A DNA stretch of 64,000 nt. It comes from Candidatus Multivorans sp. GTDB lineage: Bacteria; Acidobacteriota; Thermoanaerobaculia; Multivoradales; Multivoraceae. Positions within the stretch are counted from its first letter, which is position 1; each line of letters starts with the position of its first letter. The position numbers and the translations under genes were made by a program. Where the stretch lies: positions 1,920,001 through 1,984,000 of the forward strand of contig OZ251997.1 of assembly GCA_965247095.1 (NCBI GenBank), read 5' to 3'. Below the pieces are notes generated by a model. It did not search any database. It was given only the letters and a program-made list of their open reading frames with translations, and had not been told where the DNA came from. Positions 26,803-38,739 of this stretch are shown in pieces.

Positions 26803-27410
26803 CTAGCGCGGCGCCTGCCAGTTCGGCGTCATCCATGCGCCCGATGACGGGCGCATGGACTGGTTCTGGCGCGGAACGCGCCACCCGGGTTCCCGCAGGG
26901 CTCCGGCCTCGTCGAGAAGCTCGTCCAGCCGCCCGGACAGGCGGTCGAACAGCGCCTTGAGTGCCAGCACCTCGGCTGCCTCTTCGCCGTCCTGGCTCCG
27001 CGCGTTCCGGGCCGCGACCGCCAGTCGCGTCTCGACGTTGCCGGCGCCGTGACGGGTGATGAAGCTGCCCAGGAGGTTGTCTCTCTCCGCCGGGTCGGCC
27101 TCCAGGTCGTAGAGCTCGTAGCGGTCCCACACGCCGTGGAATCGCATCAATCCGGGCCGCGGCTCGTCGGACGTGCCGCCCATGTGCCATTTGCCGACGA
27201 AGGCCGTCCGGTAGCCGGCGCCCTGGAGTTCCTGCGGGAAGGTCGGCGTCGACGGATCCAGACGGGTGCGGTTGTCGAGTACGCCGTGACGGTGGGCGTA
27301 CTGCCCGGTGAGGATCGAGGCGCGGCTCGGCGAGCAGAGCGACGTGGTCACAAAGGCGTTCTCGAACAGCACCCCGCGTTCGATCAGCCGGTCGAGGTGC
27401 GGGGTCTCGT
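26803..27410 (-). pseudogene. Sulfatase remnant (N-terminus lost, large in-frame internal deletion)
   Basis: TPHLDRL..FENAFVTTSLCSPSRASILTG (CxPxR) and GKWHMG joined directly to C-terminal ELYDLEADPAE; a stop codon lies just upstream of ETPHLD. Confidence 0.85.
26828..26892 (-). repeat. GAAC double-hairpin dispersed repeat, copy 3
   Basis: Reverse complement GAACccgggtggcgcg-ttc-cgcgcca-GAACcagtccatgcgcccg-tcat-cgggcgcatggatgac; 39 bp identical to copy 2. Confidence 0.85.
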
Positions 27411-27429: not shown

Positions 27430-28353
27430 TCAGTCTTTCTGGGGAAGTTCGCCCAGACCGACCGCGGCCAGTTCCTCGGGCTCGTAGTTCCAGCGCCGGT
27501 AGTTCCACATCCACTGCTCGGGCTGCGCCCGCACTCTCCGTTCGATCGCCGCGGCGATCCGCTGCGACAGCTCGACCGCGTCCCTCGTACCGCCGGGCGA
27601 GCGCAGGATCTCACTCTCCAGCCGGTACGAGAAGGGGCCCTCCCGGACGCAGAACGCGGCGACCAGGGGGCAGTCGCGCTTGGCCGCCAGCGCCGCCGGA
27701 CCGCCGACGAACTCCGTGCGGCGGCCCAGGAAGGAGACCTCCGGCCCGCGCCGCTGGTCGGGCCGCTGATCGACCACCATGATCAGCGTCTCCTTCCGCG
27801 TGAGGCAGCTCAGCATGTCGCGCAGGAGAGAAGCGCGGCCGCTCCAGATCACTCGCACATCCGACCGCGCCCGCATCCGCTCGACAAAGAGCGACATCGC
27901 CGCGGAACGCGCGGGCTTGGCGACCGCGCACACCGGAGAGGCGGCCGCGCGCACGGTGCTCTGAGCCAGCAGTTCCCAGGCACCGAGGTGGGCCGTGACC
28001 AGCACCTGGCCGCGGCCGCAACCCTCGACCTCCGCCATCAACCGCTGCAGGTCGCCGAAGCCCTCCATCGCTCCTACCTCGAGCCGCTTCTGGTCGAAGC
28101 TGATCCGCACCGTCTCCAGCGCCGCCACGATCTGATGCCGGACGCAGCGCCACTCCAGGTCGCGCGCCTCCGGCGACCCCGGAGGCAGCCCCAGAACCAC
28201 CGCCAGATTGCGGCGCATCAAGCGCACGTCACGCGGCGTGATCCGGCGGCAATGGGCCAGCAGCCCCGCCAGCGGGCCGAAGGCGGCCGCCGGCAGCAGG
28301 CGCAGCAGCCACGAGGCGGCGTGGAGGAAGGCTCCCATGGTGCGATTGGACAT
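27430..28353 (-). CDS. Lipid A/lysophospholipid acyltransferase (LpxL/HtrB-like)
   Basis: LVTAHLGAWEL, MVVDQ, VSFLGR, RAQPEQWMWNYRRW. Confidence 0.88.
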   Translation of the reverse strand: MSNRTMGAFLHAASWLLRLLPAAAFGPLAGLLAHCRRITPRDVRLMRRNLAVVLGLPPGSPEARDLEWRCVRHQIVAALETVRISFDQKRLEVGAMEGFGDLQRLMAEVEGCGRGQVLVTAHLGAWELLAQSTVRAAASPVCAVAKPARSAAMSLFVERMRARSDVRVIWSGRASLLRDMLSCLTRKETLIMVVDQRPDQRRGPEVSFLGRRTEFVGGPAALAAKRDCPLVAAFCVREGPFSYRLESEILRSPGGTRDAVELSQRIAAAIERRVRAQPEQWMWNYRRWNYEPEELAAVGLGELPQKD

Positions 28354-28499
28354 CAGGGACTTGGTGAGTGTAGTGAGGGATCCGTCGCACCACCGCAGTT
28401 CTCGAACAACGGGCCGTGGACTACGACAACCATCGTCTCAAAGATACTCGGCCCTACACGTATCCTGGCCCACCCGGTCGCTAGGGGCCGCGCCCGGCC

Positions 28500-28745
28500 C
28501 GTTCCCTGCTCCACGGCGGCGGCACGCAAGCGACGCCAGCCACAGGACGGCGGGTCAGCCGTCCCCGCGGGGCCCCCGAGGCGGAGAGACCGGGCGAAGC
28601 GCTGCAGATCGAGCAGGCACCCTTCAAGGTGCGCACCATCCATGTCGATGGCGGCAGGGAATCACCGCCGACCTTGAACAGGCCTGCGCTGAGCGGGGAA
28701 TCGGGCTCGGTGTCCTGCCGCGTCACTCGCTCACACTCAACGGAA
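28500..28745 (+). mobile_element. Degenerate IS481-like transposase (integrase core) remnant
   Basis: Fragments AERPGEALQIE, PFKVRTIHVDGGRE and (frameshifted) DLEQACAERGIGLGVLPRHSLTLNG resemble rve-core motifs; left boundary approximate. Confidence 0.6.
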
Positions 28746-28754
28746 GCGGGAATA

Positions 28755-29075
28755 TGGCGGCCGCGATGACGGGATGACCACAGCGGAGCGCGGGAAGCTT
28801 CGGAGGCTTCGGCGGGAGAATCGGCGGCTGCGCGAAGAGCGGGAGATCCTGGCAAACCAACGGCCTGGTTCGCTCGGGAGACGGGGCCCACGAGGTCTAC
28901 GGGTTCATGAAGGCGAACCACGCCAGAAGAGACTCTTCCGCTACGTCGAGGCTGATACGATCCGCATCGTCGGCACTCCGCCGTCGGACACCGCCCTTCC
29001 TCAACTTCGAGAAACCTACCGCGAAGCCGCTTGTGTCCCTAAACGTAGACTGTCCACGAAACCGGGGCAACCTCG
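28755..29075 (+). mobile_element. Internally deleted IS3-family remnant with right terminal inverted repeat
   Basis: OrfA tail TTAERGKLRRLRRENRRLREEREILA; OrfB start VYGFMKAN; OrfB end LFRYVE...RRHSAVG; IRR-like ctgtccacgaaaccggggcaacctc at 29050-29074. Confidence 0.8.
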
Positions 29076-29191
29076 CTTCTTCGCAATTCCCCCGCATTGG
29101 ATCCCGTTCATTTGCTAGGTGTCGAGGGTGTGGCGAGCTGCTAGTGTGTCCCTCCAACTAAGAGGTTTCCCGCCTCAAGAAGGAGTTCCTG

Positions 29192-29455
29192 ATGAAGAAG
29201 AGCGTTTGGATCCACGCTGTGATGGCTGTCGTGGCGGCTGCTCTAATGGGCGTCGGGTCGGCCGGTGAAGTGCTTGCCGACGAGTGCGACCAGAAATGTA
29301 AATTCACCATTGGCCCGAACGGAACCACGGTGGAATGCACCACGGTCGCGCCCGGCGAGACGGGCGCGAAAGTATGCGTTCCAATCAACACGAAAGACGA
29401 CAACTACTGTGAACTTGAGCTATGCGACGACGGCTTTGCCTATCCGATAGCGTGA
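29192..29455 (+). CDS. Small secreted cysteine-rich peptide
   Basis: AAGGAG RBS; Sec signal ending VLA|D; mature ~58 aa with 6 Cys. Confidence 0.75.
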   Translation: MKKSVWIHAVMAVVAAALMGVGSAGEVLADECDQKCKFTIGPNGTTVECTTVAPGETGAKVCVPINTKDDNYCELELCDDGFAYPIA

Positions 29456-29474
29456 CGAGGACGGAGCCTTCGAG

Positions 29475-31754
29475 GTGGGGCGCAAGCTAACTAAGATGCC
29501 TCAAATGGATGGACCCTGTCGCCGGCTTGTCCTGTCGGCCCTCGTTATGGCTGCGACGGTGTCGGTCCATCGGCCGCTGACGGCCCAGGTCGCCATCTCG
29601 GTTCAGGTAGAGGCGAATCTAGTGCCCGGTGAGGCGTCCCCGGACCAGGCCGAGGTCCTGCTGGCTCTCGCCCCGACCCGGGAGATCGTTGGTGGGTACA
29701 CGGTGAGCGAGATTCCGGGCTCGGTCACCGCCAACGTTCCCCCTGCCGCGAACGGATGGATCGTGGAGGTGTCGGCGCCCGGCTGGTGGGCGCCGACGGC
29801 TCGGGTGACGTCAGACGATCCGGAAGCCTCGTTGGTTCTGGTGCCCGAAGGTCGGCTCCGATTCCGTCTGGAGGGCGCCGACCTCGGCGTGGAGACCCTG
29901 GACAGCGGAAGCGTCCGAGTCTTCGGGCGAGTCTGGGGCGAGGAGACGAGGTTGGGGCGTGGCATCCACGGCGGGCCGTGCGAGATCGACCTCGACCGGG
30001 ACGATCGGGACGCGTCGGTTACATGCCCCTTTGCGCTCGGGGTAAAGGCGGACCTTCAGGTCTTTCTAGGGCCCTTCCTGCCGTGGATCCAGTCTGGTGT
30101 CGTGGTGGCCGAGAACACCGACTTCGGAGCATTCAATCCGGAGCGCGGAGCCTCGGCCTCCGGCCGCGTGCGGGCTGCCGTCGGGCAAGGTGCCCTGCTG
30201 CTAGCCCTGTCGCCGAGAAACGGGTCCTTCCCCTTCACGACCTGGACCGACGAGCAGGGCGTCTTTGCGTTCGAGGGCCTTGCTTCGGGAACGTACGACC
30301 TCCATCTGGAGCAGTCGCCACGGGACCGCTGGGCGGTTCGGGTCGAGTCGGTGCTGGATCAGATCGACCTGGGCGAGATCGTTTCGGCGGCTGCCAACCG
30401 ATTCTCCGTGGACGTCTCCGCCCCCCACGCGATTCTTCCCAACCTGACCGTGAAGGCCAGTCGGGTATCCCTCCGCGAAGACGGCACGCCCGCACCCAGG
30501 GTCTTCGGGCAGCACCTCGCGAAGCGGTCTTTCGACGGTGGTTCGATCTTTGTCTGGTCTGGCATACCCGGCGGGTCCTACCTGATTCTGGTCGAAGGCC
30601 AGTGGGGCAATCGGTGGCATCGCGAACACATCGACTTCTCTGCTGCCTCCCATCATGCCATCGATATGGATGGGGTCCAGATCCGAGGTCGAATTCGAAG
30701 AGGCGCCAAGCCCCTGGAAGATGTGCTCGTCTGGTTCGGCGGTCTCACGGGCGGAGAGCGCATCGCCATGAAGAGTCGGCATGATGGTCGGTTCGAGGGT
30801 TGGCTGCCAACTCGTGCGCACCTCGGAGATTCCGGGGACGAGTGGCACGTCCAAGTGACGCAGGCGCCGGCCTGTGGGCCATGTGAGGGCGACTGGACAA
30901 CTTGGCAGAGCTTCGATTCTGGCCAGGTCGTGAATGCGGGCGTGGTAGAGATCGTCGAGAACGTAGATGGCGTCGGGCGTGTCGAGATCAGCCTGCCGGA
31001 CGGGCGGATCAGCGGCCGCGTCCTGCGAGTGGACGCCGAAACCGCTGACCGCACGGCCCTATCCGGCGCCACCGTCCGGCTCAGCGCGCGGGACCATGGC
31101 CGTTGGGACTGGAGTACCGTGACCTCGGAAGAAGGAGGTTTCGAGTTTCTTGGCGTACCAGAGGGGGAAGTCGATCTGTCTGCCGAAGCCCGTGTGGACG
31201 ATCAGATCTTTCGGTCCGGCCGAACGCAATTGCAGCTCTCGGAGGGAGCAGCCGTTGAGGATGTTGAGATCCACCTTGAACCGCAGCAGCTCTTCAACCT
31301 GCTCGTTCGGACACGCAACGGTCCGCTGAGGAACGCCACGGTCCTGCTCTTGGACACAGAGTCCGCAGCAGCCCGTGTACAGTGGACTCTCGCCAACGGG
31401 TCCACGCAGTTCTGGGTTCCTGCCGACCGCCTCGTCCAGTTCGTCGTTCTGGCCTCTGGCTTGGGGGCGGACGGGTGGCGGGTGAGATTGCCGCCAGAGG
31501 GCGATCTTGAAGTCGAGCTCTTCGATACACGAGGCGACCTGCTGCTGCCGGACACCGTCGAGGCGACGATCGTCAACTCCCGCGGCGTTGCGCTGCGACT
31601 CTCGGTCCTGCGACACGTGGGCCAGATTCGCGACACGGAAGAGGGCGAGGTGATCAGAAACCTCGCCCCTGGCAGCTACAGCTACTGCCCGCGAGACGCC
31701 GAATGCGCAATGGTGCACGTCATCGCTGGAACACTCAATCGAATCGGTCCGTGA
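29475..31754 (+). CDS. Exported protein with multiple carboxypeptidase-regulatory-like/Cna-B beta-sandwich repeats
   Basis: Signal-like N-terminus; repeats such as TWTDEQGVFAFEGLASGTYDL, TVTSEEGGFEFLGVPEGEVDL, IRNLAPGSYSY. Confidence 0.75.
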   Translation: MGRKLTKMPQMDGPCRRLVLSALVMAATVSVHRPLTAQVAISVQVEANLVPGEASPDQAEVLLALAPTREIVGGYTVSEIPGSVTANVPPAANGWIVEVSAPGWWAPTARVTSDDPEASLVLVPEGRLRFRLEGADLGVETLDSGSVRVFGRVWGEETRLGRGIHGGPCEIDLDRDDRDASVTCPFALGVKADLQVFLGPFLPWIQSGVVVAENTDFGAFNPERGASASGRVRAAVGQGALLLALSPRNGSFPFTTWTDEQGVFAFEGLASGTYDLHLEQSPRDRWAVRVESVLDQIDLGEIVSAAANRFSVDVSAPHAILPNLTVKASRVSLREDGTPAPRVFGQHLAKRSFDGGSIFVWSGIPGGSYLILVEGQWGNRWHREHIDFSAASHHAIDMDGVQIRGRIRRGAKPLEDVLVWFGGLTGGERIAMKSRHDGRFEGWLPTRAHLGDSGDEWHVQVTQAPACGPCEGDWTTWQSFDSGQVVNAGVVEIVENVDGVGRVEISLPDGRISGRVLRVDAETADRTALSGATVRLSARDHGRWDWSTVTSEEGGFEFLGVPEGEVDLSAEARVDDQIFRSGRTQLQLSEGAAVEDVEIHLEPQQLFNLLVRTRNGPLRNATVLLLDTESAAARVQWTLANGSTQFWVPADRLVQFVVLASGLGADGWRVRLPPEGDLEVELFDTRGDLLLPDTVEATIVNSRGVALRLSVLRHVGQIRDTEEGEVIRNLAPGSYSYCPRDAECAMVHVIAGTLNRIGP

Positions 31755-31758
31755 CTGG

Positions 31759-32259
31759 ATGGTCACAGATCAACGACGAAACAAGGAGGAACTTCGAGTG
31801 TCTCTCGAAACAAGTGGACGACGTGCCGTCGTCATCGCAGTAGGCGTCATCTTCTCGGCCGGCTTGCTCGTGGCCCAGGCTGCGCCGGGGCCTGGCTACT
31901 TGGGAATTGGCTTTTCGATAGATCCCGAGTCGGGAGTACTGTCAGTACGTCAGATCGTCCCCGACAGTCCTGCTGCGTCTGTGGACATTGTAGTCGCTGA
32001 CGAGATCCTGAGAGTCGATGCAAAGGAGATCCGGTTTCCTTCTCACCGAGCTGCGTTGGAGTTTCTCTCCAAGCGTGCCCGCACGGGTGTCGTCTTAGTG
32101 CTGACAGTCAGGAGAGGGGGGGTGCTACGGGAGACGAGAATCGTCCCCGAGGAACCGCCCCCGTCGCTTGCATCCCAGAACGAACTGGCACTCCGCTGCG
32201 CCGACGGAGAAGATCGACCCGAGGCAGCTTGGTCTCGCGCGTTCGAGTCGGTTCCGTAG
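31759..32259 (+). CDS. Exported stand-alone PDZ domain protein
   Basis: Hydrophobic signal segment; GYLGIGF carboxylate-binding loop, IVPDSPAA, DEILRVD, LTVRRGG. Confidence 0.8.
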   Translation: MVTDQRRNKEELRVSLETSGRRAVVIAVGVIFSAGLLVAQAAPGPGYLGIGFSIDPESGVLSVRQIVPDSPAASVDIVVADEILRVDAKEIRFPSHRAALEFLSKRARTGVVLVLTVRRGGVLRETRIVPEEPPPSLASQNELALRCADGEDRPEAAWSRAFESVP

Positions 32260-32404
32260 CAGTCCAGTCGCGAGAGTGCGGCGATGGGGCCATGAAGGGT
32301 CTCGAGCAACCGTCGCGTTCCTGACTCTGTTCGCCGGCACGGCCGCCTTCGCGGGAGGCGACGACCTGCCGCCATCGCACAGGACGGTGCTACGATCCCG
32401 GCTC

Positions 32405-32659
32405 TTGAGCAGTCAATCCGAGCAGTCCGCCTACTGGCGAGCGAACCTGCGACTGATGGCGACCCTCCTCGCCGTCTGGTTCTTCTGCTCCTACGTGCTC
32501 GGCATCTTCCTGGTTGAGCCGCTGAACGGCGCCCGCATCGGCGGCTTCCCGCTCGGATTCTGGTTCGCGCACCAGGGATCGATCTACGTCTTCATCGCGC
32601 TGATCCTGGTCTACGCGACGGTCATGGACCGCCTCGACCGCCGCTACGGAGTCGACTGA
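32405..32659 (+). CDS. DUF4212 small membrane subunit of sodium:solute symporter
   Basis: AYWRANLRL...GGFPLGFWFAHQGSIYVFIALI...MDRLDRRYGV; TTG start assumed. Confidence 0.88.
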   Translation: MSSQSEQSAYWRANLRLMATLLAVWFFCSYVLGIFLVEPLNGARIGGFPLGFWFAHQGSIYVFIALILVYATVMDRLDRRYGVD

Positions 32660-32738
32660 ACCGCTCAGGCGACCTGCCCGGCGCTTCCCGAGACCCGACT
32701 GACCGCACGCGAATGACGACAGAGGGGAGCAGCAGCCG

Positions 32739-34442
32739 ATGAACGTCCAGGCCTGGACCTACGTCATCGTCTCCGCGACCTTCGCGCTCTACATCGGCAT
32801 CGCCTGGTGGAGCCGGGTCAAGTCGACCTCCGGCTTCTACGTCGCCGGTCGCGGCGTTCCGGCGATCGCCAACGGCATGGCAACCGGCGCCGACTGGATG
32901 AGCGCCGCCTCCTTCATCTCGATGGCGGGCCTCGTCTCCTTCATGGGCTACACCGGCACCATCTACCTGATGGGCTGGACCGGCGGCTACGTGCTGCTGG
33001 CGCTCCTGCTAGCGCCCTATCTGCGCAAGTACGGCAAGTTCACGACCTCCGAGTTCGTCGGCGACCGCTACTACTCGGACGCCGCCCGGCTGGTGGCCGC
33101 GGGCTGCACGATCTTCGTTTCCTTCACCTACATCGCCGGCCAGATGCGGGGCGTCGGCGTCGTGTTCTCGCGCTTCCTGGAGGTCGAGATCTACTGGGGC
33201 GTGGTGATCGGCGTGGTGATCGTCTTCTTCTACGCCGTGGTCGGCGGCATGAAGGGAATCACCTACACCCAGGTCGCCCAGTACTGCGTCCTGATCGTCG
33301 CCTATCTCATTCCGGCCGCGGCGATCTCGTGGAAGATCACCGGCAACCCCATCCCGCAGTTCGGGTTCGGCGGCGCGGTCCAGGAGGGCCAGGCGGCGGG
33401 CGTCTTCCTGCTCGAGACCCTGGACGCCCTGCACCGGGAGCTGCGGCTGCCCGAGTACACCGCCGCCTTCGTGCCGGGCAAGAAGAGCATGATCGACGTC
33501 ACTGCGATCACGCTCGCCCTGATGGTCGGCACCGCCGGCCTGCCGCACGTGCTGGTCCGCTTCTACACCGTGCGCAGCGCCAGAGCCGCGCGCTGGAGCG
33601 CGCTGTGGGCGCTGGTCTTCATCGGCCTTCTCTACACCACCGCGCCCGCGGTCGCCGCCTTCGCCCGGGTGAACCTGATCTCCACCCTCCACGGCGCGAG
33701 CTACAGCGAGGTCCCGGAGTGGTTCCGGAGCTGGGAAACGACCGGCCTGATCGCCTTCGACGACAAGAACGGCGACGGCATGATCGACATGGCCGACGGC
33801 GCCAACGAACTGACCGTCGACCCCGACATCATGGTCCTGGCCAATCCGGAGATCGCGGAGCTTCCCGCCTGGGTCGTTGCCCTCGTCGCCGCCGGCGGGC
33901 TCGCGGCGGCGCTCTCCACCGCCGCCGGCCTGCTGCTCGTGATCGCCTCGGCGATCTCTCACGACGTCGGCAAATCGGTCCTGTGGAAGGACATGAGCTC
34001 GCGCAAGGAACTCCTGCTGGCGCGGAGCACCGCGGCCGCCGCCGTGGTCGTGGCCGCCTACTTCGGCATCTCGCCGCCGGGCTTCGTCGCCCAGGTCGTC
34101 GCCTTCGCCTTCGGCCTGGCCGCGGCGAGCTTCTTCCCCATCCTCGTTCTCGGCATCTTCACCCGCAGCACGACGAAGGAGGGCGCGATTGCCGGCATGA
34201 GCACCGGCATCCTGTTCACCGGCACCTACATCGTCTACTTCCGCCTGATCCGGCCCGAAGCCACCGCCGAGGACTGGCTGTTCGGCATCAGCCCGGAGGG
34301 CATCGGCGCCGTCGGCATGCTGATCAACTTCTCCCTGGCGCTGATCGTGAGCCGCTTCACCAAGCCGCCGCCGGACGAAGTGCAGCGCCTGGTGAGTGAG
34401 ATCCGCCTGCCGCGCGAGCGGGCGGCCGACGCTGCGCCGTAG
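32739..34442 (+). CDS. Cation/acetate symporter ActP-like sodium:solute symporter
   Basis: NGMATGADWMSAASFISMAG, GTAGLPHVLVRFYT; downstream of DUF4212. Confidence 0.92.
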   Translation: MNVQAWTYVIVSATFALYIGIAWWSRVKSTSGFYVAGRGVPAIANGMATGADWMSAASFISMAGLVSFMGYTGTIYLMGWTGGYVLLALLLAPYLRKYGKFTTSEFVGDRYYSDAARLVAAGCTIFVSFTYIAGQMRGVGVVFSRFLEVEIYWGVVIGVVIVFFYAVVGGMKGITYTQVAQYCVLIVAYLIPAAAISWKITGNPIPQFGFGGAVQEGQAAGVFLLETLDALHRELRLPEYTAAFVPGKKSMIDVTAITLALMVGTAGLPHVLVRFYTVRSARAARWSALWALVFIGLLYTTAPAVAAFARVNLISTLHGASYSEVPEWFRSWETTGLIAFDDKNGDGMIDMADGANELTVDPDIMVLANPEIAELPAWVVALVAAGGLAAALSTAAGLLLVIASAISHDVGKSVLWKDMSSRKELLLARSTAAAAVVVAAYFGISPPGFVAQVVAFAFGLAAASFFPILVLGIFTRSTTKEGAIAGMSTGILFTGTYIVYFRLIRPEATAEDWLFGISPEGIGAVGMLINFSLALIVSRFTKPPPDEVQRLVSEIRLPRERAADAAP

Positions 34443-34479: not shown

Positions 34480-34699
34480 CAGGAGGGGTCAGCTCCCAGG
34501 TGACGTGCCATTCGTGCGCCCGCTGACGGGCGCACGGACTGGTTCACGGGTGGCGCGGATCGCGCCACCCGGGTTCGCGCTTGAGAGGAAATGTAGGGGG
34601 TTGCGCTCACTCCGCTTCACTCGCTCCGGTTGGGCGTCGGTCAGTGCGATGTCGTTGAGCGTCGCTCGTTCAGAGGCACCTGGGAGCTGACCCCTCCTG
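34480..34699. repeat. ~220-bp non-coding element bounded by perfect 23-bp inverted repeats (MITE/BIME-like)
   Basis: caggaggggtcagctcccaggtg (34480-34502) is the exact reverse complement of cacctgggagctgacccctcctg (34677-34699). Confidence 0.75.
34509..34576 (-). repeat. GAAC double-hairpin dispersed repeat, copy 4
   Basis: Reverse complement GAACccgggtggcgcg-atc-cgcgccacccgt-GAACcagtccgtgcgcccg-tcag-cgggcgcacgaatg. Confidence 0.85.
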
Positions 34700-34820
34700 C
34701 CCCGACTGGGCTGGCGGCCGACCCACGGTCCCGATCTGCGACCCCTCAACGGGGCCGCTACCGCCGCCCAAGGACTAAGGTATCCTCCAAGCCGACAACC
34801 CACTCCGGAAGGAGGAGACC

Positions 34821-35009
34821 ATGCGCAACAAGAATGCGGGCCAGAAGCCTGCTACTACAGTGACGAGCCGACCGGCGCAAGACCGCCCCCCTACGGTCCA
34901 CGTTCCTTCTCGTCCTGTGGCGCGCCCCGCTTCCAGGAAGTCTGAGGCAATCATCAAAGAGGTCTCGGTCCGGCGACGTACGGCGATGAAGGTCTTGGCA
35001 AATCGCTGA
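34821..35009 (+). CDS. Small putative antitoxin of Doc toxin
   Basis: GGAGG RBS; C-terminal helix IIKEVSVRRRTAMKVLANR, typical of Doc-neutralising tails; immediately precedes the doc-like gene. Confidence 0.6.
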   Translation: MRNKNAGQKPATTVTSRPAQDRPPTVHVPSRPVARPASRKSEAIIKEVSVRRRTAMKVLANR

Positions 35010-35391
35010 CGGCCACTACCAAGTCACTTGGGCAGACGCGATCCGCGCCCATGAGGAGGCGCTGCGAGATGGTGGTGCCGCCGGCATCCTCAACCGTTCC
35101 GCCATTGAGTCCGCTATCGCCCGGCCATATCATGGCTACCATCAGCACGTCCACCAGAAGGCTGCGGCTCTGGTCCACGGTATCGTCTCCAATCACGGCT
35201 TTGTGGATGGCAACAAGCGCACGGCGCTCTACTTGGTAGAACTCTTGGCAGTCCGAAGCGGATACCGTCTAGCAGTGGACGACCTCCTTCTAGCAGACGT
35301 CATAACGGCTGTGGCCCGTCGAAAAATGGGCTACGACCCACTTGAAACTTGGTTCAAGGAGCGGCTCAAGTCGGCTTGCGGCACCGCATAG
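34999..35391 (+). CDS. doc: Doc/Fic family toxin; no canonical start codon in frame
   Basis: Open frame HYQVTWADAIRAHEEAL...IESAIARP...KAAALVHGIVSNHGFVDGNKRTA (Fic motif HxFxDGNKR). Confidence 0.8.
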   Translation, partial: QIADGHYQVTWADAIRAHEEALRDGGAAGILNRSAIESAIARPYHGYHQHVHQKAAALVHGIVSNHGFVDGNKRTALYLVELLAVRSGYRLAVDDLLLADVITAVARRKMGYDPLETWFKERLKSACGTA

Positions 35392-35421
35392 CAAGCCCTC
35401 TACTTGGCCCTAGTTGGACCG

Positions 35422-36358
35422 ATGAAGAACAAGAGAGACACTGGAAAGCCCGAAGATCCCCTGCGGGAAATCAAGCAAGCCACTGTAGCGATCGGCACAG
35501 TGCCAAAAGCGCCGAGGCCCCCGAGCGACGGCCCTTTCTACGATGGAAACCTTGTGGACTTTGAACTAAAAGGGACGGGCCTCATCTATTCATACACCCC
35601 AATGGAGTACGCCCCCGTCAAATCTCCTCCCGATCCGAAAGACGGGAGCAGTCTACTACTGGGCCAGGATGTGGATCGTAACGTGTAAGCACTGCATCCA
35701 AGACACTCCTGTAGTCGCAGTCCGTGCGGACACGAATGATGGCACTCGCGTGTATCCGATCCGCGCATCAAAATGGAGCCGACACCCAAACGAAGACGTC
35801 GCAGTAACTCCCTTCGGGCTGGACGGAGAAGCGAAAGACACAGCCGACGATGTCGCCGCTGCTGCGTTTCGAGGTTTGGTCATTTCCAGCGTAGGAAGGG
35901 AACTCACTGCGACTAGGGACCAAATCATGAGAACCGGGTTCTGGGAGGGCACGCCTGTGTCGATGATCGGGTTTCCCGCCGGTATGATTGAAGGCGGGAA
36001 GAAGAACTATCCGGTCGTTCGCGGCGGGACGATCGCTCAAATTCAAGGCTATCTGGATCGTGACCCCGAACACCGCAACTTCCTCATCGACGGATCCGTC
36101 TTCGGCGGCAACAGCGGAGGCCCCATAGTAGTCCGAAAAGGCGTGATGAATTGTGAGAATCAGGCTCTTTCGCATACTGTCTTGATCGGCATGGTGTCTG
36201 CGACGGTTCGAGTGGAAACCGAACGGCACGACCAGTCCCCTCGCGATGTCTTCGAAAACGCAGGCCTCGTGCACGGAGTCAGCGTGGACGCGATTAACGA
36301 CACAATTCACCGATACTACGTCTCGAGTGCGAACTCGAAGGAGGATATCTCGAGCTGA
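35422..36358 (+). pseudogene. Trypsin-like serine protease split by a +1 frameshift near 35645
   Basis: KGTGLIY in the first ORF; IVTCKH (His), EDVAV (Asp) and GGNSGGP (Ser) in the second ORF. Confidence 0.75.
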
Positions 36359-36474
36359 ACCCGGTAGCTCGCGGGTGGTAGTCGAGTTCCCGGCGGTAGT
36401 AGCCGTGCGGGGCGGAGAGCGAGGGCAAGAGGTTGCGACTCGAGGCGAGGCCAGAAGAGGGCAGGGTAAGGGCC

Positions 36475-38739
36475 CTAGGCCAGCTCCGCCAGTTGCTCGC
36501 GGAGAGTGGAGTAGCGGCGGAGGTCCGAGGCCTCATCAACAGCCTTTTGGAGCGCCCATTTCTGGCCGACGATTACCACCACCTGTCGGCCTCTGGTGAT
36601 CGCCGTGTAGAGGAGGTTGCGGCGCAGCATGACGTAGTGGTGCGTGGAAATCGGTATGACGACAGCGGGATACTCCGAACCCTGCGACTTGTGGACGGTG
36701 ACGGCGTAGGCGAGCATCACGCGGTCAAGATCGGGGAACGGGTAGCTGATGGGACGACCATCGAACTCGATCGTCATCTTCTGTTCCCCGGGGTCGATCG
36801 AGACCACCCGGCCGAGGTCGCCGTTGAAGACTTCGCGCCCGTAGTCGTTCTCGGTCTGCATCACTTTGTCGAGTGCGCGGTACTTCCAGCCGAAGCGTTC
36901 GACCTCGACCGCGCCGGACTTGGGCGCCGGATTCAGCACCTCCTGCAGGGTCGCGTTGAGCGCCCGGGCGCCGAGCGGTCCGCGGTTCATTGGCGACAAC
37001 ACCTGGACATCGCGCACCGGGTCGAGGCCGAAGCGCATGGGGATACGTCCCTTGACGATCCGAGCGATCTTCTTCTGCGCGTCCTCGGCATCCTCGGCGG
37101 GCACGAAGTAGAAGTCGCTCAGTTCGTCCGACCTCGACTCCAGTTCCGGTAGGTAACCCCGGTTCACGCGGTGGGCGTTCCTCACGATCCGGCTGTTGTC
37201 GGCCTGGCGGAAGATCTCCTTCAGACGCGCCACCGGGAGAGCGTCGGAATCGATCAGATCCCGCAGCACCTGGCCGGGGCCCACGGACGGCAGTTGGTCC
37301 GCGTCGCCGATCAGGAGCAGCGATCCTTCCGCCGGCAGCGCCTGGAGAAGCGCCGCCATCAGCTCCACGTCGACCATCGACGCCTCGTCGACCACCAGCA
37401 GGCCGCAGTCGATCGGTCGCAGGCGGCCGCGCCGGAAGGTCCCGTTCGACGGGTCGATTTCGAGCAGCCGGTGGATCGTCTTCGCGGTGTGGCCGGTGCT
37501 CTCGCCGAGCCGCTTCGCCGCGCGGCCGGTCGGGGCGCAGAGTGCGCAGCGCACGTCGCGGGTCCGCAGGATCCGCAGCACCGCGTTGACCAGGGTCGTC
37601 TTGCCGACGCCCGGGCCGCCGGTGATCACGGCAACCCGCGAGCGCAGGCTGGTCTCGACCGCGGCGCGCTGGGTCGGCGCCAGGGTCACGTCCAGCCGCT
37701 TCTCCACCCAGGTCAGGGCCTTGGCGGCGTCGATGTCCGCCCAGGGGGGCGGGTCGGCCCGGATGAGTTCACCCAGCCGGCGGGCGATGGCCCGCTCCGC
37801 CGACAGCAGCAGCAGCAGGAAGATCGCCTCCTCGCCGCCCAGACGCGTGGCAACCAGCCGCTCCGCGCGAAGGCCTGCAGCCGCCTCAGGATCTCGCCGA
37901 CCGGCACCTGGCGCGTGTCGGCGACGGTCAGGGCCTCTTCGAAGCTCATCCGCCAGGGCAGTGACGAGGATCTCCTCCGGGATCTTCAGCAGCTCCTGTG
38001 CCTGCTCGAGGAGTTCGCTTCGGGGCAGGCCGCAGTGTCCGGCGCCCCGGGCCTGCTCCAGGGTGTAGCGGAGGCCGGCGCGCGCCCGCGGCAAACCCTC
38101 GCGGTCCTTGCCCAGACTCGCGCCGATGCTGTCGGCGATCCGGAAGCCGATGCCCCGGATATCCCGCGCCAACCGGTAGGGGTCCTCGGTCAGCAGCGTC
38201 GCGGCGTCGGCGCCGTACCTGCGGTAGATCCGAGCCGCCCTCGACGATCGGAGTCCGTGGGTCTGCAGGAAGACCATGATGTCGCGTACCGCCTTCTGGT
38301 CCGCGAAGCCCTCGCTCAAACTCTTCGCGCGCTTCGGGCCGATGCCCGGTACCTCCGTCAGCCGCTCCGGCTCGTTCTCGATGACCTCGAAGACATCCTC
38401 GCCGAACGCCTTCACCAGCCGTCTCGCCATCTTGGGTCCGACGCCCTGCACCTTTCCCGACCCGAGGTAGCGCCGCATGCCTTCGAGCGAATCCGGCGGC
38501 GATACGGCGAGCCGTTGAGCCTGGAACTGGCGCCCGTGGCTCGGATCGTTGCGCCAGGAGCCGGACGCCTGGATCGTCTCCCCCTGCGAGACCACCGGCA
38601 GCCGCCCGACTACCGCCACAGGTTGACCGCGGCCGCGGACCCGTACGCGCATCACGGCGAACCCGTTCTCCGGATTGTGGAAGACGACCCGCTCAACGAC
38701 CCCGGAGAGAGCCTCCCGATCCTGGTCCGAAGCCGTCAT
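36475..38739 (-). CDS. recD2: ATP-dependent RecD2-like DNA helicase
   Basis: GVVERVVFHN, HhH repeats, TGGPGVGKTT, APTGRAAKRL, DEASM, GDADQLPSVGPG, AYAVTVHKSQGSE. Confidence 0.95.
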   Translation of the reverse strand: MTASDQDREALSGVVERVVFHNPENGFAVMRVRVRGRGQPVAVVGRLPVVSQGETIQASGSWRNDPSHGRQFQAQRLAVSPPDSLEGMRRYLGSGKVQGVGPKMARRLVKAFGEDVFEVIENEPERLTEVPGIGPKRAKSLSEGFADQKAVRDIMVFLQTHGLRSSRAARIYRRYGADAATLLTEDPYRLARDIRGIGFRIADSIGASLGKDREGLPRARAGLRYTLEQARGAGHCGLPRSELLEQAQELLKIPEEILVTALADELRRGPDRRRHAPGAGRRDPEAAAGLRAERLVATRLGGEEAIFLLLLLSAERAIARRLGELIRADPPPWADIDAAKALTWVEKRLDVTLAPTQRAAVETSLRSRVAVITGGPGVGKTTLVNAVLRILRTRDVRCALCAPTGRAAKRLGESTGHTAKTIHRLLEIDPSNGTFRRGRLRPIDCGLLVVDEASMVDVELMAALLQALPAEGSLLLIGDADQLPSVGPGQVLRDLIDSDALPVARLKEIFRQADNSRIVRNAHRVNRGYLPELESRSDELSDFYFVPAEDAEDAQKKIARIVKGRIPMRFGLDPVRDVQVLSPMNRGPLGARALNATLQEVLNPAPKSGAVEVERFGWKYRALDKVMQTENDYGREVFNGDLGRVVSIDPGEQKMTIEFDGRPISYPFPDLDRVMLAYAVTVHKSQGSEYPAVVIPISTHHYVMLRRNLLYTAITRGRQVVVIVGQKWALQKAVDEASDLRRYSTLREQLAELA

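Follow-up and report, generated by a model that had tools for sequence, protein, structure and literature searches.

A recurrent cassette encoding a disulfide-rich mini-protein, a beta-sandwich protein and a stand-alone PDZ protein in Candidatus Multivorans

The Three-Gene Locus

The window analyzed here is a 64,000-nucleotide stretch of the genome of Candidatus Multivorans sp. (contig OZ251997.1 of assembly GCA_965247095.1), a genome that consists of one 4.62-Mb contig and is designated G000, and the subject of this work is a cassette of three genes for exported proteins at positions 29192–32259 of that window. The three open reading frames (ORFs) lie co-oriented on the forward strand and encode a Cys-rich mini-protein, a large protein built of beta-sandwich domains (the big protein) and a protein with a stand-alone PDZ domain. 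They are separated by gaps of 19 and 4 nucleotides, and the coordinates and tight spacing given in a sequence-only reading of the window proved exact; as the database relatives of the big protein are 749 amino acids long, its true start may be Met11, in which case the first gap would be 49 nucleotides. The ATG of the mini-protein gene is preceded by a strong AAGGAG ribosome-binding site, and a promoter and terminator scan, otherwise uninformative, found no terminator-like site on the forward strand between the three genes. In addition, a 528-nucleotide contig from an RNA library (run X10, a sponge metatranscriptome), identical to the window, spans the 3′ end of the big gene and the PDZ gene (31551–32078, forward strand), with the reservation that such libraries may contain DNA and that absence cannot be read from contigs. 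The short gaps and this bridging contig indicate that the three genes are a genuine operon.

The mini-protein ORF (29192–29455, forward strand) encodes 87 amino acids with six Cys. Its predicted Sec-type signal peptide covers residues 1–29 (29192–29278, forward strand; cleavage between VLA and DEC), as read from the sequence and with a hydropathy rule, and leaves an acidic mature peptide of 58 amino acids (29279–29455, forward strand), to which alignments and an AlphaFold2 model assign a (D)ECxxxC N-terminus, the six Cys, four beta strands and a free tail, GFAYPIA. The big gene (29475–31754, forward strand) encodes an exported 759-amino-acid string of CarboxypepD_reg, transthyretin-like and Cna-B-like beads, according to Pfam, AlphaFold2, Foldseek and alignment. 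The PDZ gene (31759–32259, forward strand) encodes an exported, stand-alone HtrA-type protein of 166 amino acids, recognized by Pfam PDZ_2, by invariant alignment columns and by a profile search of PDB sequences. All three proteins start with a basic N-terminus followed by a hydrophobic stretch and an AxA-like site, which agrees with the export signals ascribed to them earlier; these signals were read by eye from the sequences, and the hydropathy rule was applied to the peptides alone. The G+C content is ~0.62–0.64 across 28500–32500 vs. ~0.70 outside, and, as the sequence-only reading had stated, the G+C content at third codon positions (GC3) is lower than in the flanks (0.68, 0.75 and 0.61 in the peptide, big and PDZ genes, respectively, vs. 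0.89–0.95 in the flanking core genes).

Recurrence of the Cassette

The three-gene arrangement, which had been put forward from this single locus, was sought among homologs of the big protein with a Cys-rich ORF and a PDZ gene beside them, and it recurs. An upstream Cys-rich ORF was present at 12 of the 15 distinct loci in which a PDZ gene is linked to the big gene vs. 1 (locus L092) of the 27 distinct PDZ-less loci; the corresponding counts in the first set were 9 of 11 and 0 of 12. To be counted, an upstream ORF had to encode 45–160 amino acids, end near the start of the big gene, and show a basic N-terminus, a 12-residue hydropathy window of at least 2.0 and at least four Cys after residue 20. 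Left out of the totals were duplicates of one place under two locus identifiers, G018:C64 (PDZ gene at the contig start), L095 (contig end just after the big gene), L077 (big gene interrupted by TGA) and L078 (a second copy of the L010 place). Among the PDZ-linked misses, L028 has a truncated ORF of 55 amino acids and three Cys upstream, and L041 has a DDE transposase in place of the peptide gene.

PDZ homologs with 41–46% identity lie directly downstream of big paralogs in G008, G010, G014 and, twice, G023; a weaker homolog was found in G034, which belongs to another family, and four further PDZ loci, all from the same lineage, came to light when 185,579 species genomes were scanned with a pattern. 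At each PDZ-linked locus first read, a different small ORF with a signal peptide and 6–8 Cys lies directly upstream of the big gene. Two genomes (G023 and G043) carry two cassettes each, with one peptide type per cassette. Both add-ons are missing beside the two paralogs of the big protein in the same genome and beside its closest ortholog in the first sample (G003, 49% identity). The trios of G034, G055 and G099 represent a sister family, in which the big protein is ~24% identical to that of the window. Thus, the cassette is a real, recurrent module of three exported proteins, restricted to one lineage (Candidatus Multivorans and Thermoanaerobaculia records) and at least one sister family, and the peptide and PDZ add-ons are gained and lost together at a minority of big-gene loci.

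The Mini-Protein Family

The window peptide has no Pfam match, and the NCBIfam model ExtJ (NF040942) was rejected for it at 17.2 bits vs. a cut-off of 52.5. A single-sequence search with the peptide found no homolog in 24 congeners (E ≤ 0.1); the peptides of other cassettes are too diverged for such a search. Four relatives were found in the protein database: one (P0001) is 99% identical, and the other three (P0002–P0004), with 65–77% identity, keep all six Cys and the (F/G)YPIA end. P0002 and P0007, a relative of the big protein with 84% identity, are probably encoded on one contig, since both list a longest contig of 144,198 bases.

The 16 cassette peptides collected are very divergent and share a common design that consists of a Sec signal and a last Cys pair of the form C-x(4-7)-C. 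A CxxC or CxxxC motif stands at, or at most two residues from, the predicted mature N-terminus in 15 of the 16, the exception being that of L096, for which an earlier Cys, probably of the signal region, was counted, and the Cys count is even (six or eight) in 15, with a ninth Cys, probably in the signal region, in the L096 peptide. All 16 mature peptides are acidic (net charge −1 to −15; −7 in the window). The tail consensus within the genus is D-[FW]-G-x-P-[IE]-[AYL]. As had been pointed out for the window peptide, the C-terminus is hydrophobic: YPIA is kept in its relatives, and the last residue is A, L, Y, V or I in all 16 peptides, vs. a hydrophobic last residue in 0 of 30 big proteins.

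Three close pairs gave ratios of nonsynonymous to synonymous substitution (dN/dS) of 0.18, 0.28 and 0.33 for the peptide ORF, similar to those of its neighbors (0.21 for the big gene and 0.13–0.29 for the PDZ gene), and in a deeper pair (L032 vs. L042) identity fell from 68% in the PDZ protein to 55% in the big protein and 40% in the peptide. Judged from these substitution ratios, the small ORF is a real gene on which purifying selection acts. When a profile built from the 16 peptides was run against 1.84 billion representative proteins, it retrieved 12 sequences at E ≤ 0.001, all of the same design; the peptide family is therefore small and lineage-restricted.

An AlphaFold2 model from 25 sequences predicts four beta strands in the mature core (residues ~31–80) with a predicted local distance difference test (pLDDT) score of 80–87, a low-confidence helix at residues 11–20, and a pLDDT of ~45 for the last seven residues, the sole low-confidence part of the mature model. 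This model had no match in the PDB with Foldseek at E ≤ 0.001 and none among 48,161 chains with VIA-align at Z ≥ 2, and the best score in the ESM Atlas was 0.81, under the useful range. The mini-protein family is thus new with respect to Pfam, NCBIfam and Atlas families and to fold relatives in the Foldseek and VIA-align searches.

The Big Beta-Sandwich Protein

The carboxypeptidase-like repeat scaffold recognized in the sequence-only reading is supported by Pfam, where CarboxypepD_reg (PF13620) scores 57.2 bits vs. a cut-off of 32.3 in two stretches; SdrD_B (PF17210) reaches 29.6 bits, just under its cut-off of 29.7. Two full-length paralogs (40% and 36% identity) are encoded in the same genome, relatives occur in 20 of the 24 other genomes of the genus, and in a profile search 108 of the 201 genomes taken from the order had at least one (E ≤ 1e-15). 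A word-indexed protein database returned 22 relatives, all with PF13620, for which the sole source name is ‘carboxypeptidase regulatory-like domain-containing protein’.

From an alignment of 30 sequences, AlphaFold2 predicts an all-beta protein of ~8 sandwich domains (mean pLDDT 84; predicted TM-score, pTM, 0.49). Its Foldseek matches are the Bacillus anthracis TIE protein, SdrD, Cna B repeats (B1B2), Gram-positive pilins and MG-domain arrays, and none of the matches is an enzyme domain. SdrD and Cna B1B2 had a Foldseek probability of 1.00 but low TM-scores, and the TM-scores of the matches, 0.06–0.14, are as expected for flexible chains of beads. Six Cys, or three pairs, are invariant in 30 of 30 big proteins, including a C-x-P-C-E-G-x-W loop (C467-x-P-C470) that is equally conserved in paralogs without PDZ and peptide genes. 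An alpha-2-macroglobulin or thioester protein was considered and rejected, given that the 759-amino-acid sequence contains no CxEQ and that the MG-array matches reflect the generic sandwich.

Several features were observed around big genes in general. A regulator with an unusual sensor-regulator architecture, in which Diphthami_syn_2 (ATP pyrophosphatase-like) is fused to an AraC helix-turn-helix, adjoins many big genes, both PDZ-linked and PDZ-less (L002 259–1374 and L030 6473–7633; also L011, L013, L028, L032 and L092); G000 has three copies, none of them in the window. Proteins with a VWA domain that match TIGR03436 (acidobact_VWFA) in NCBIfam, without a Pfam match, are frequent beside big paralogs, convergent in PDZ-less loci (L002 3823–5202, reverse strand) and downstream of the PDZ gene in L028 (1604–3406, reverse strand). 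Two full copies of the big gene lie ~1.9 kb apart at G016:C1 752377–758592, and an N-terminal 238-amino-acid fragment precedes a full copy at G023:C6 324140–327909. Upstream of the paralog at L003 1387–3732, an ORF of 198 amino acids (L003 473–1260; G000:C1 ~3,852,000) begins with a signal like those of the cassette peptides (MKKDSW...LLSGLFFALL), continues with a CPAPC motif and hydrophobic segments, and is followed by a membrane ORF of 65 amino acids; it has no Pfam or NCBIfam match, and a full copy of the insertion sequence (IS) described below lies just upstream (G000:C1 3847450–3850266).

The PDZ Protein

PDZ_2 (PF13180) scores 30.1 bits in the window protein vs. a cut-off of 27, and 47.8 and 30.0 bits in PDZ proteins of sister loci. 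The window protein has a signal or anchor at residues ~22–42, a GYLGIGF carboxylate-binding loop at 46–52 and C147 in its C-terminal tail. The six PDZ proteins aligned share, without variation, the GYLGIGF loop, the single tail Cys C147 and an S-H pair that opens the second helix, and GY[LM]G[IVF]GF, the S-H pair and the Cys are kept in all 11 genus-level PDZ proteins. The residue after GIGF tracks the type of peptide tail (S with PIA or AFA, E with PEL, A with PEY), a correspondence that is confounded by clade structure.

In a profile search of PDB sequences, the closest relatives were DegP-like PDZ1 (5e-14) and the PDZ domains of RseP and CtpA, and in NCBIfam the PDZ parts of prc, Ctp and DegS matched far under the cut-offs. 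Accordingly, two assignments were rejected: an HtrA/DegP/DegS endopeptidase, as the PDZ domain stands alone (degS 20.6 vs. 422.95; degP_htrA_DO 15.2 vs. 416.2), and a C-terminal processing peptidase of family S41, as the prc match (22.7 vs. 218.6) is confined to the PDZ part. A weak search for longer fused relatives found none, viral contigs contained no relative of the PDZ protein, and the six weak matches in metagenome contigs all lie in frames of ~480–540 amino acids with no big-family gene nearby. The discussion of a published paper puts at 88% the share of classified microbial PDZ proteins in which PDZ is joined to a protease domain (PMC6411480).

Insertion and Erosion of the Accessory Block

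The cassette and the IS fragments next to it form an accessory block of ~4.04 kb (28354–32390), recognized by empty sites in relatives and by its low G+C content and GC3. On the left lies a core gene for an lpxL-like lipid A acyltransferase (27430–28353, reverse strand; Pfam Lip_A_acyltrans, 1.4e-24), 72–91% identical in 15 congeners, and on the right (32399–34442, forward strand) two core genes assigned by Pfam, a DUF4212 small subunit (32399–32659) and an SSF sodium:solute symporter (32739–34442), which stand beside lpxL in congeners. In all 15 same-genus genomes searched, the lpxL-like and DUF4212/SSF genes are direct divergent neighbors 28–283 nucleotides apart, and the distance from the lpxL-like gene to DUF4212 in the window is ~4.04 kb. 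Similarly, run X5 includes a contig, from a related organism (12 of 124 letters differ), in which 30 other letters separate 28353 from 32391 and which therefore represents an empty site. The block is a lineage-specific insertion. With these Pfam-assigned genes as neighbors, no modifying enzyme or transporter stands beside the window cassette, consistent with the earlier statement that this is not a classical cluster for a ribosomally synthesized and post-translationally modified peptide (RiPP).

The IS debris mentioned in the sequence-only reading consists of two fragments that are ~80% identical to the ends of a multi-copy element. The first (28747–28924, forward strand) represents its 5′ end, takes in the beginning of an ORF resembling transposase OrfA (28774–29118, without a Pfam match) and is 79–83% identical to five other G000 sites. 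The second (28929–29071, forward strand) is the other end of the same element, the interior being deleted, and is 77–82% identical to six other G000 sites, each of which lies 0.7–2.7 kb from a copy of the first fragment; the source element has at least five other copies in the genome. Reads of three runs show 1-nucleotide insertions and very high depth at 28853–28857 in the first fragment, as expected for a multi-copy element with variant copies. Other cassettes occupy different neighborhoods, near groEL, ndk/sucCD or a thymidine phosphorylase-like gene (names read by eye from translations). The cassette is accessory and horizontally mobile.

Close relatives document its erosion. In G162, in which the flanking genes are 96–99.6% identical to those of the window, a cassette occupies the same site, and its big gene is intact, yet only 85% identical to that of the window (88% at the DNA level). 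The G162 peptide gene is broken, with an IS OrfA fragment fused in frame at ~residue 34 and with the start codon and signal peptide lost, and the PDZ gene lacks its first ~98 codons through a deletion. The OrfA fragment and the peptide ORF meet at a shared Q-K codon pair in the fusion ORF (L098 5300–5680), which suggests a microhomology-mediated deletion from a window-like arrangement. In addition, contigs of runs X5 and X8, which come from two studies, have a 1-nucleotide deletion in the PDZ gene (at 32035, within three consecutive T), and their contig across the peptide start (28810–29396) differs from the window by one letter. The peptide and PDZ add-ons, being eroded in close relatives, are dispensable and prone to loss, with the big gene retained, a pattern consistent with the many paralogs that lack both add-ons.

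Proposed Mechanism and Alternatives

A search of full-text literature found no description of such a cassette, and the earlier suggestion of an undescribed system has held up, since no family, defense-system model, solved fold or paper describes the trio. The parts themselves are known kinds of domains, except for the peptide, which is a new small family. We propose that all three proteins would cross the inner membrane by Sec and that the mini-protein would be oxidized to a compact four-stranded fold with three or four disulfides, leaving a flexible hydrophobic C-terminal tail. This tail would be held by the carboxylate-binding groove of the PDZ protein, which would act as an escort, cap or receptor, and the beta-sandwich protein would be a platform for the peptide/PDZ pair. 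Binding of the tail by the PDZ protein is proposed because the peptides are the sole cassette products with PDZ-type C-termini, the tail motif is genus-wide, the tail is predicted to be flexible, and the PDZ loop is invariant in the genus. The closest solved relatives of the PDZ domain by sequence, those of DegP, RseP and CtpA, bind C-termini, and PDZ and tail subtypes change in step from clade to clade, with the confounding noted above. It is a credible but tentative reading, held back because the tails of the sister family extend two residues past the last Cys and because loci with a single add-on exist.

The peptide or the PDZ protein may also contact the big protein, and the lpxL-like gene, taken to indicate a diderm, together with Sec signals alone, makes the periplasm the default location, so that ‘secreted’ may mean periplasmic. 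The role of the module is most likely that of an envelope factor or of a factor for interaction with a host or competitor. A more far-reaching possibility is a new type of ligand-receptor module, in which a PDZ protein without a protease would be the dedicated tail receptor of a single co-encoded mini-protein, itself diversifying, acidic, disulfide-knotted and of a fold without a solved relative. Both would form a mobile add-on on a beta-sandwich platform, with a matched pair of peptide tail and PDZ protein in each cassette type, and the module would serve recognition of a host or competitor at the envelope or surface of sponge-associated Acidobacteriota. We consider this fuller version doubtful.

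Several observations weigh against the proposed mechanism. The peptides of the sister family end in CAV, CAI or CIA, with the last Cys two residues from the C-terminus and little free tail, and the S-H pair and Cys are absent in the PDZ proteins of four sister-family loci and of L097. The last-named locus has a big gene and a PDZ gene, with no upstream peptide found under the rule, and L092 has a peptide and a big gene without PDZ. The 1-nucleotide deletion at 32035 implies that the PDZ protein is dispensable in near-identical strains. As for recurrence, the rule for upstream ORFs was formulated once the first examples were known, the locus counts overstate independence because the loci are related to one another, and no more than two changes of the PDZ label are required on a maximum-likelihood tree of 30 big proteins (bootstrap range 2–3). 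Finally, the X10 contigs leave the small ORF and most of the big gene uncovered, which is no evidence of absence.

One alternative is that the trio is co-regulated without contact between peptide and PDZ protein, the latter binding other C-termini (e.g., of misfolded envelope proteins, like PDZ domains of the HtrA type) and the mini-protein acting alone or with the beta-sandwich protein. The resemblance of the PDZ domain to the quality-control PDZ domains of DegP, RseP and Ctp would fit this explanation, as would the near lack of a free tail in sister-family peptides and the one-add-on loci L092 and L097; however, it leaves aside the co-occurrence of peptide and PDZ genes (12 of 15 vs. 1 of 27), their joint erosion in G162, and the conserved motif and invariably hydrophobic end of the tails. 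We regard it as unlikely.

Alternatively, the cassette might be a toxin/immunity system resembling a bacteriocin, with the mini-protein as a weapon or effector, the PDZ protein capping its tail in the producer and the big protein aiding delivery or serving as a self-receptor. Such a role would suit an accessory, IS-flanked cassette with varied genome positions and presence/absence polymorphism, a peptide that diverges faster than its partners at depth (40% vs. 55% and 68% in L032/L042), and the single peptide type per cassette, with two cassettes in G023 and G043. Yet the 16 mature peptides are all acidic, unlike most membrane-active toxins, no outer-membrane exporter, lysis gene or double-glycine leader was found at the cassette, and dN/dS is well under 1 in close pairs. 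PADLOC-DB 2.0 returned 0 families for all three proteins (E ≤ 0.01), and in X5/X8 the supposed immunity gene is frameshifted and the peptide gene looks intact. This makes the toxin explanation quite unlikely.

A periplasmic thiol or metal module, with a redox or metal relay made up of the peptide's CxxC/CxxxC, the big protein's CxPC loop and the PDZ protein's Cys, is decidedly improbable. The motifs concerned are widespread, with the N-terminal CxxC/CxxxC in 15 of 16 peptides, CxPC in 30 of 30 big proteins and C147 in 6 of 6 aligned and 11 of 11 genus-level PDZ proteins, and the peptides are acidic. Nevertheless, an even Cys count in 15 of 16 peptides and a compact beta fold suit structural disulfides, the PDZ proteins of the sister family lack the Cys, and no thioredoxin fold or metal-binding family appeared among the Pfam, NCBIfam and Foldseek matches; the CxPC loop, being equally conserved in paralogs without PDZ and peptide, does not explain the add-ons.

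Decaying accessory DNA, that is, a recently transferred remnant without present function in this lineage, deserves very little credence despite the G162 copy eroded at both ends, the X5/X8 frameshift in the PDZ gene, the empty site in a relative and the adjacent IS debris, as all three ORFs are intact in the window and in the relative with P0002 and P0007, the ribosome-binding site is strong, other cassettes are under purifying selection, and an RNA-library contig covers the big/PDZ junction.

Other Features of the Window

A second patch of low G+C content (0.58–0.62) lies at 34500–36500. It contains an ORF for a trypsin-like peptidase of 229 amino acids (35669–36358; Trypsin_2 3e-9, GC3 0.64) and an ORF of 62 amino acids (35203–35391) with a weak match to the C-terminal part of Doc toxins (TIGR01550, 20.3 bits vs. 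a cut-off of 38.65), and it is probably another accessory island with a toxin-antitoxin remnant. On the other side of the cassette, an ORF of 189 amino acids (26803–27372, reverse strand) matches positions 37–138 of the 301-position Sulfatase model and looks like a fragment or short form; congeners match its first 77–116 residues alone.

Comparison with Known Systems

Like a RiPP cluster, the cassette has a short precursor with a conserved leader, conserved ends and a variable core, but the leader here is a standard Sec signal, and none of the cassettes examined is accompanied by a modifying enzyme, a dedicated protease or a transporter. Sec-dependent, disulfide-rich secreted mini-proteins such as class II bacteriocins and knottin-like inhibitors, as well as polymorphic toxin cassettes, likewise combine a small, exported, disulfide-rich, variable product with mobile DNA. 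The product here differs in that it is acidic, has no family or fold relative in the searches described above, and is accompanied by no immunity or exporter genes of known types. Bacterial proteins that are small, stable and rich in disulfides attract interest as inhibitors, signals or toxins, and the cassette also illustrates how modules are gained and lost on mobile DNA in a lineage that is uncultured and apparently associated with sponges.

The big protein resembles Cna-B, SdrD and CarboxypepD_reg stalks in being modeled as a string of ~8 beta sandwiches. Unlike the Cna-B and SdrD stalks, it belongs to a diderm acidobacterium, has no sortase signal, wall anchor or adhesin head, and is stabilized by three conserved Cys pairs that include the CxPC loop. 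As this beta-sandwich family is large and uncharacterized, the cassette offers a handle on its function.

Among PDZ domains, those of the HtrA family read C-terminal tails, as in DegS, which recognizes the YxF tails of outer-membrane proteins, and in PDZ1 of DegP, and Ctp/Prc are tail-specific proteases. The PDZ protein of the cassette shares with the HtrA and Ctp domains, its closest relatives in PDB sequences and NCBIfam, a GYxGIG-type loop and a periplasmic type of PDZ, and its candidate ligand ends in a hydrophobic or aromatic residue. In contrast to them, it is a protein of 166 amino acids without a protease domain that scores far under the family cut-offs, and its candidate partner is a dedicated, co-encoded mini-protein, not the bulk of envelope proteins. 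If this pairing holds true, the use of PDZ domains as scaffolds, which is typical of animals, would have a bacterial counterpart in a secreted, protease-less PDZ protein with its own co-encoded ligand.

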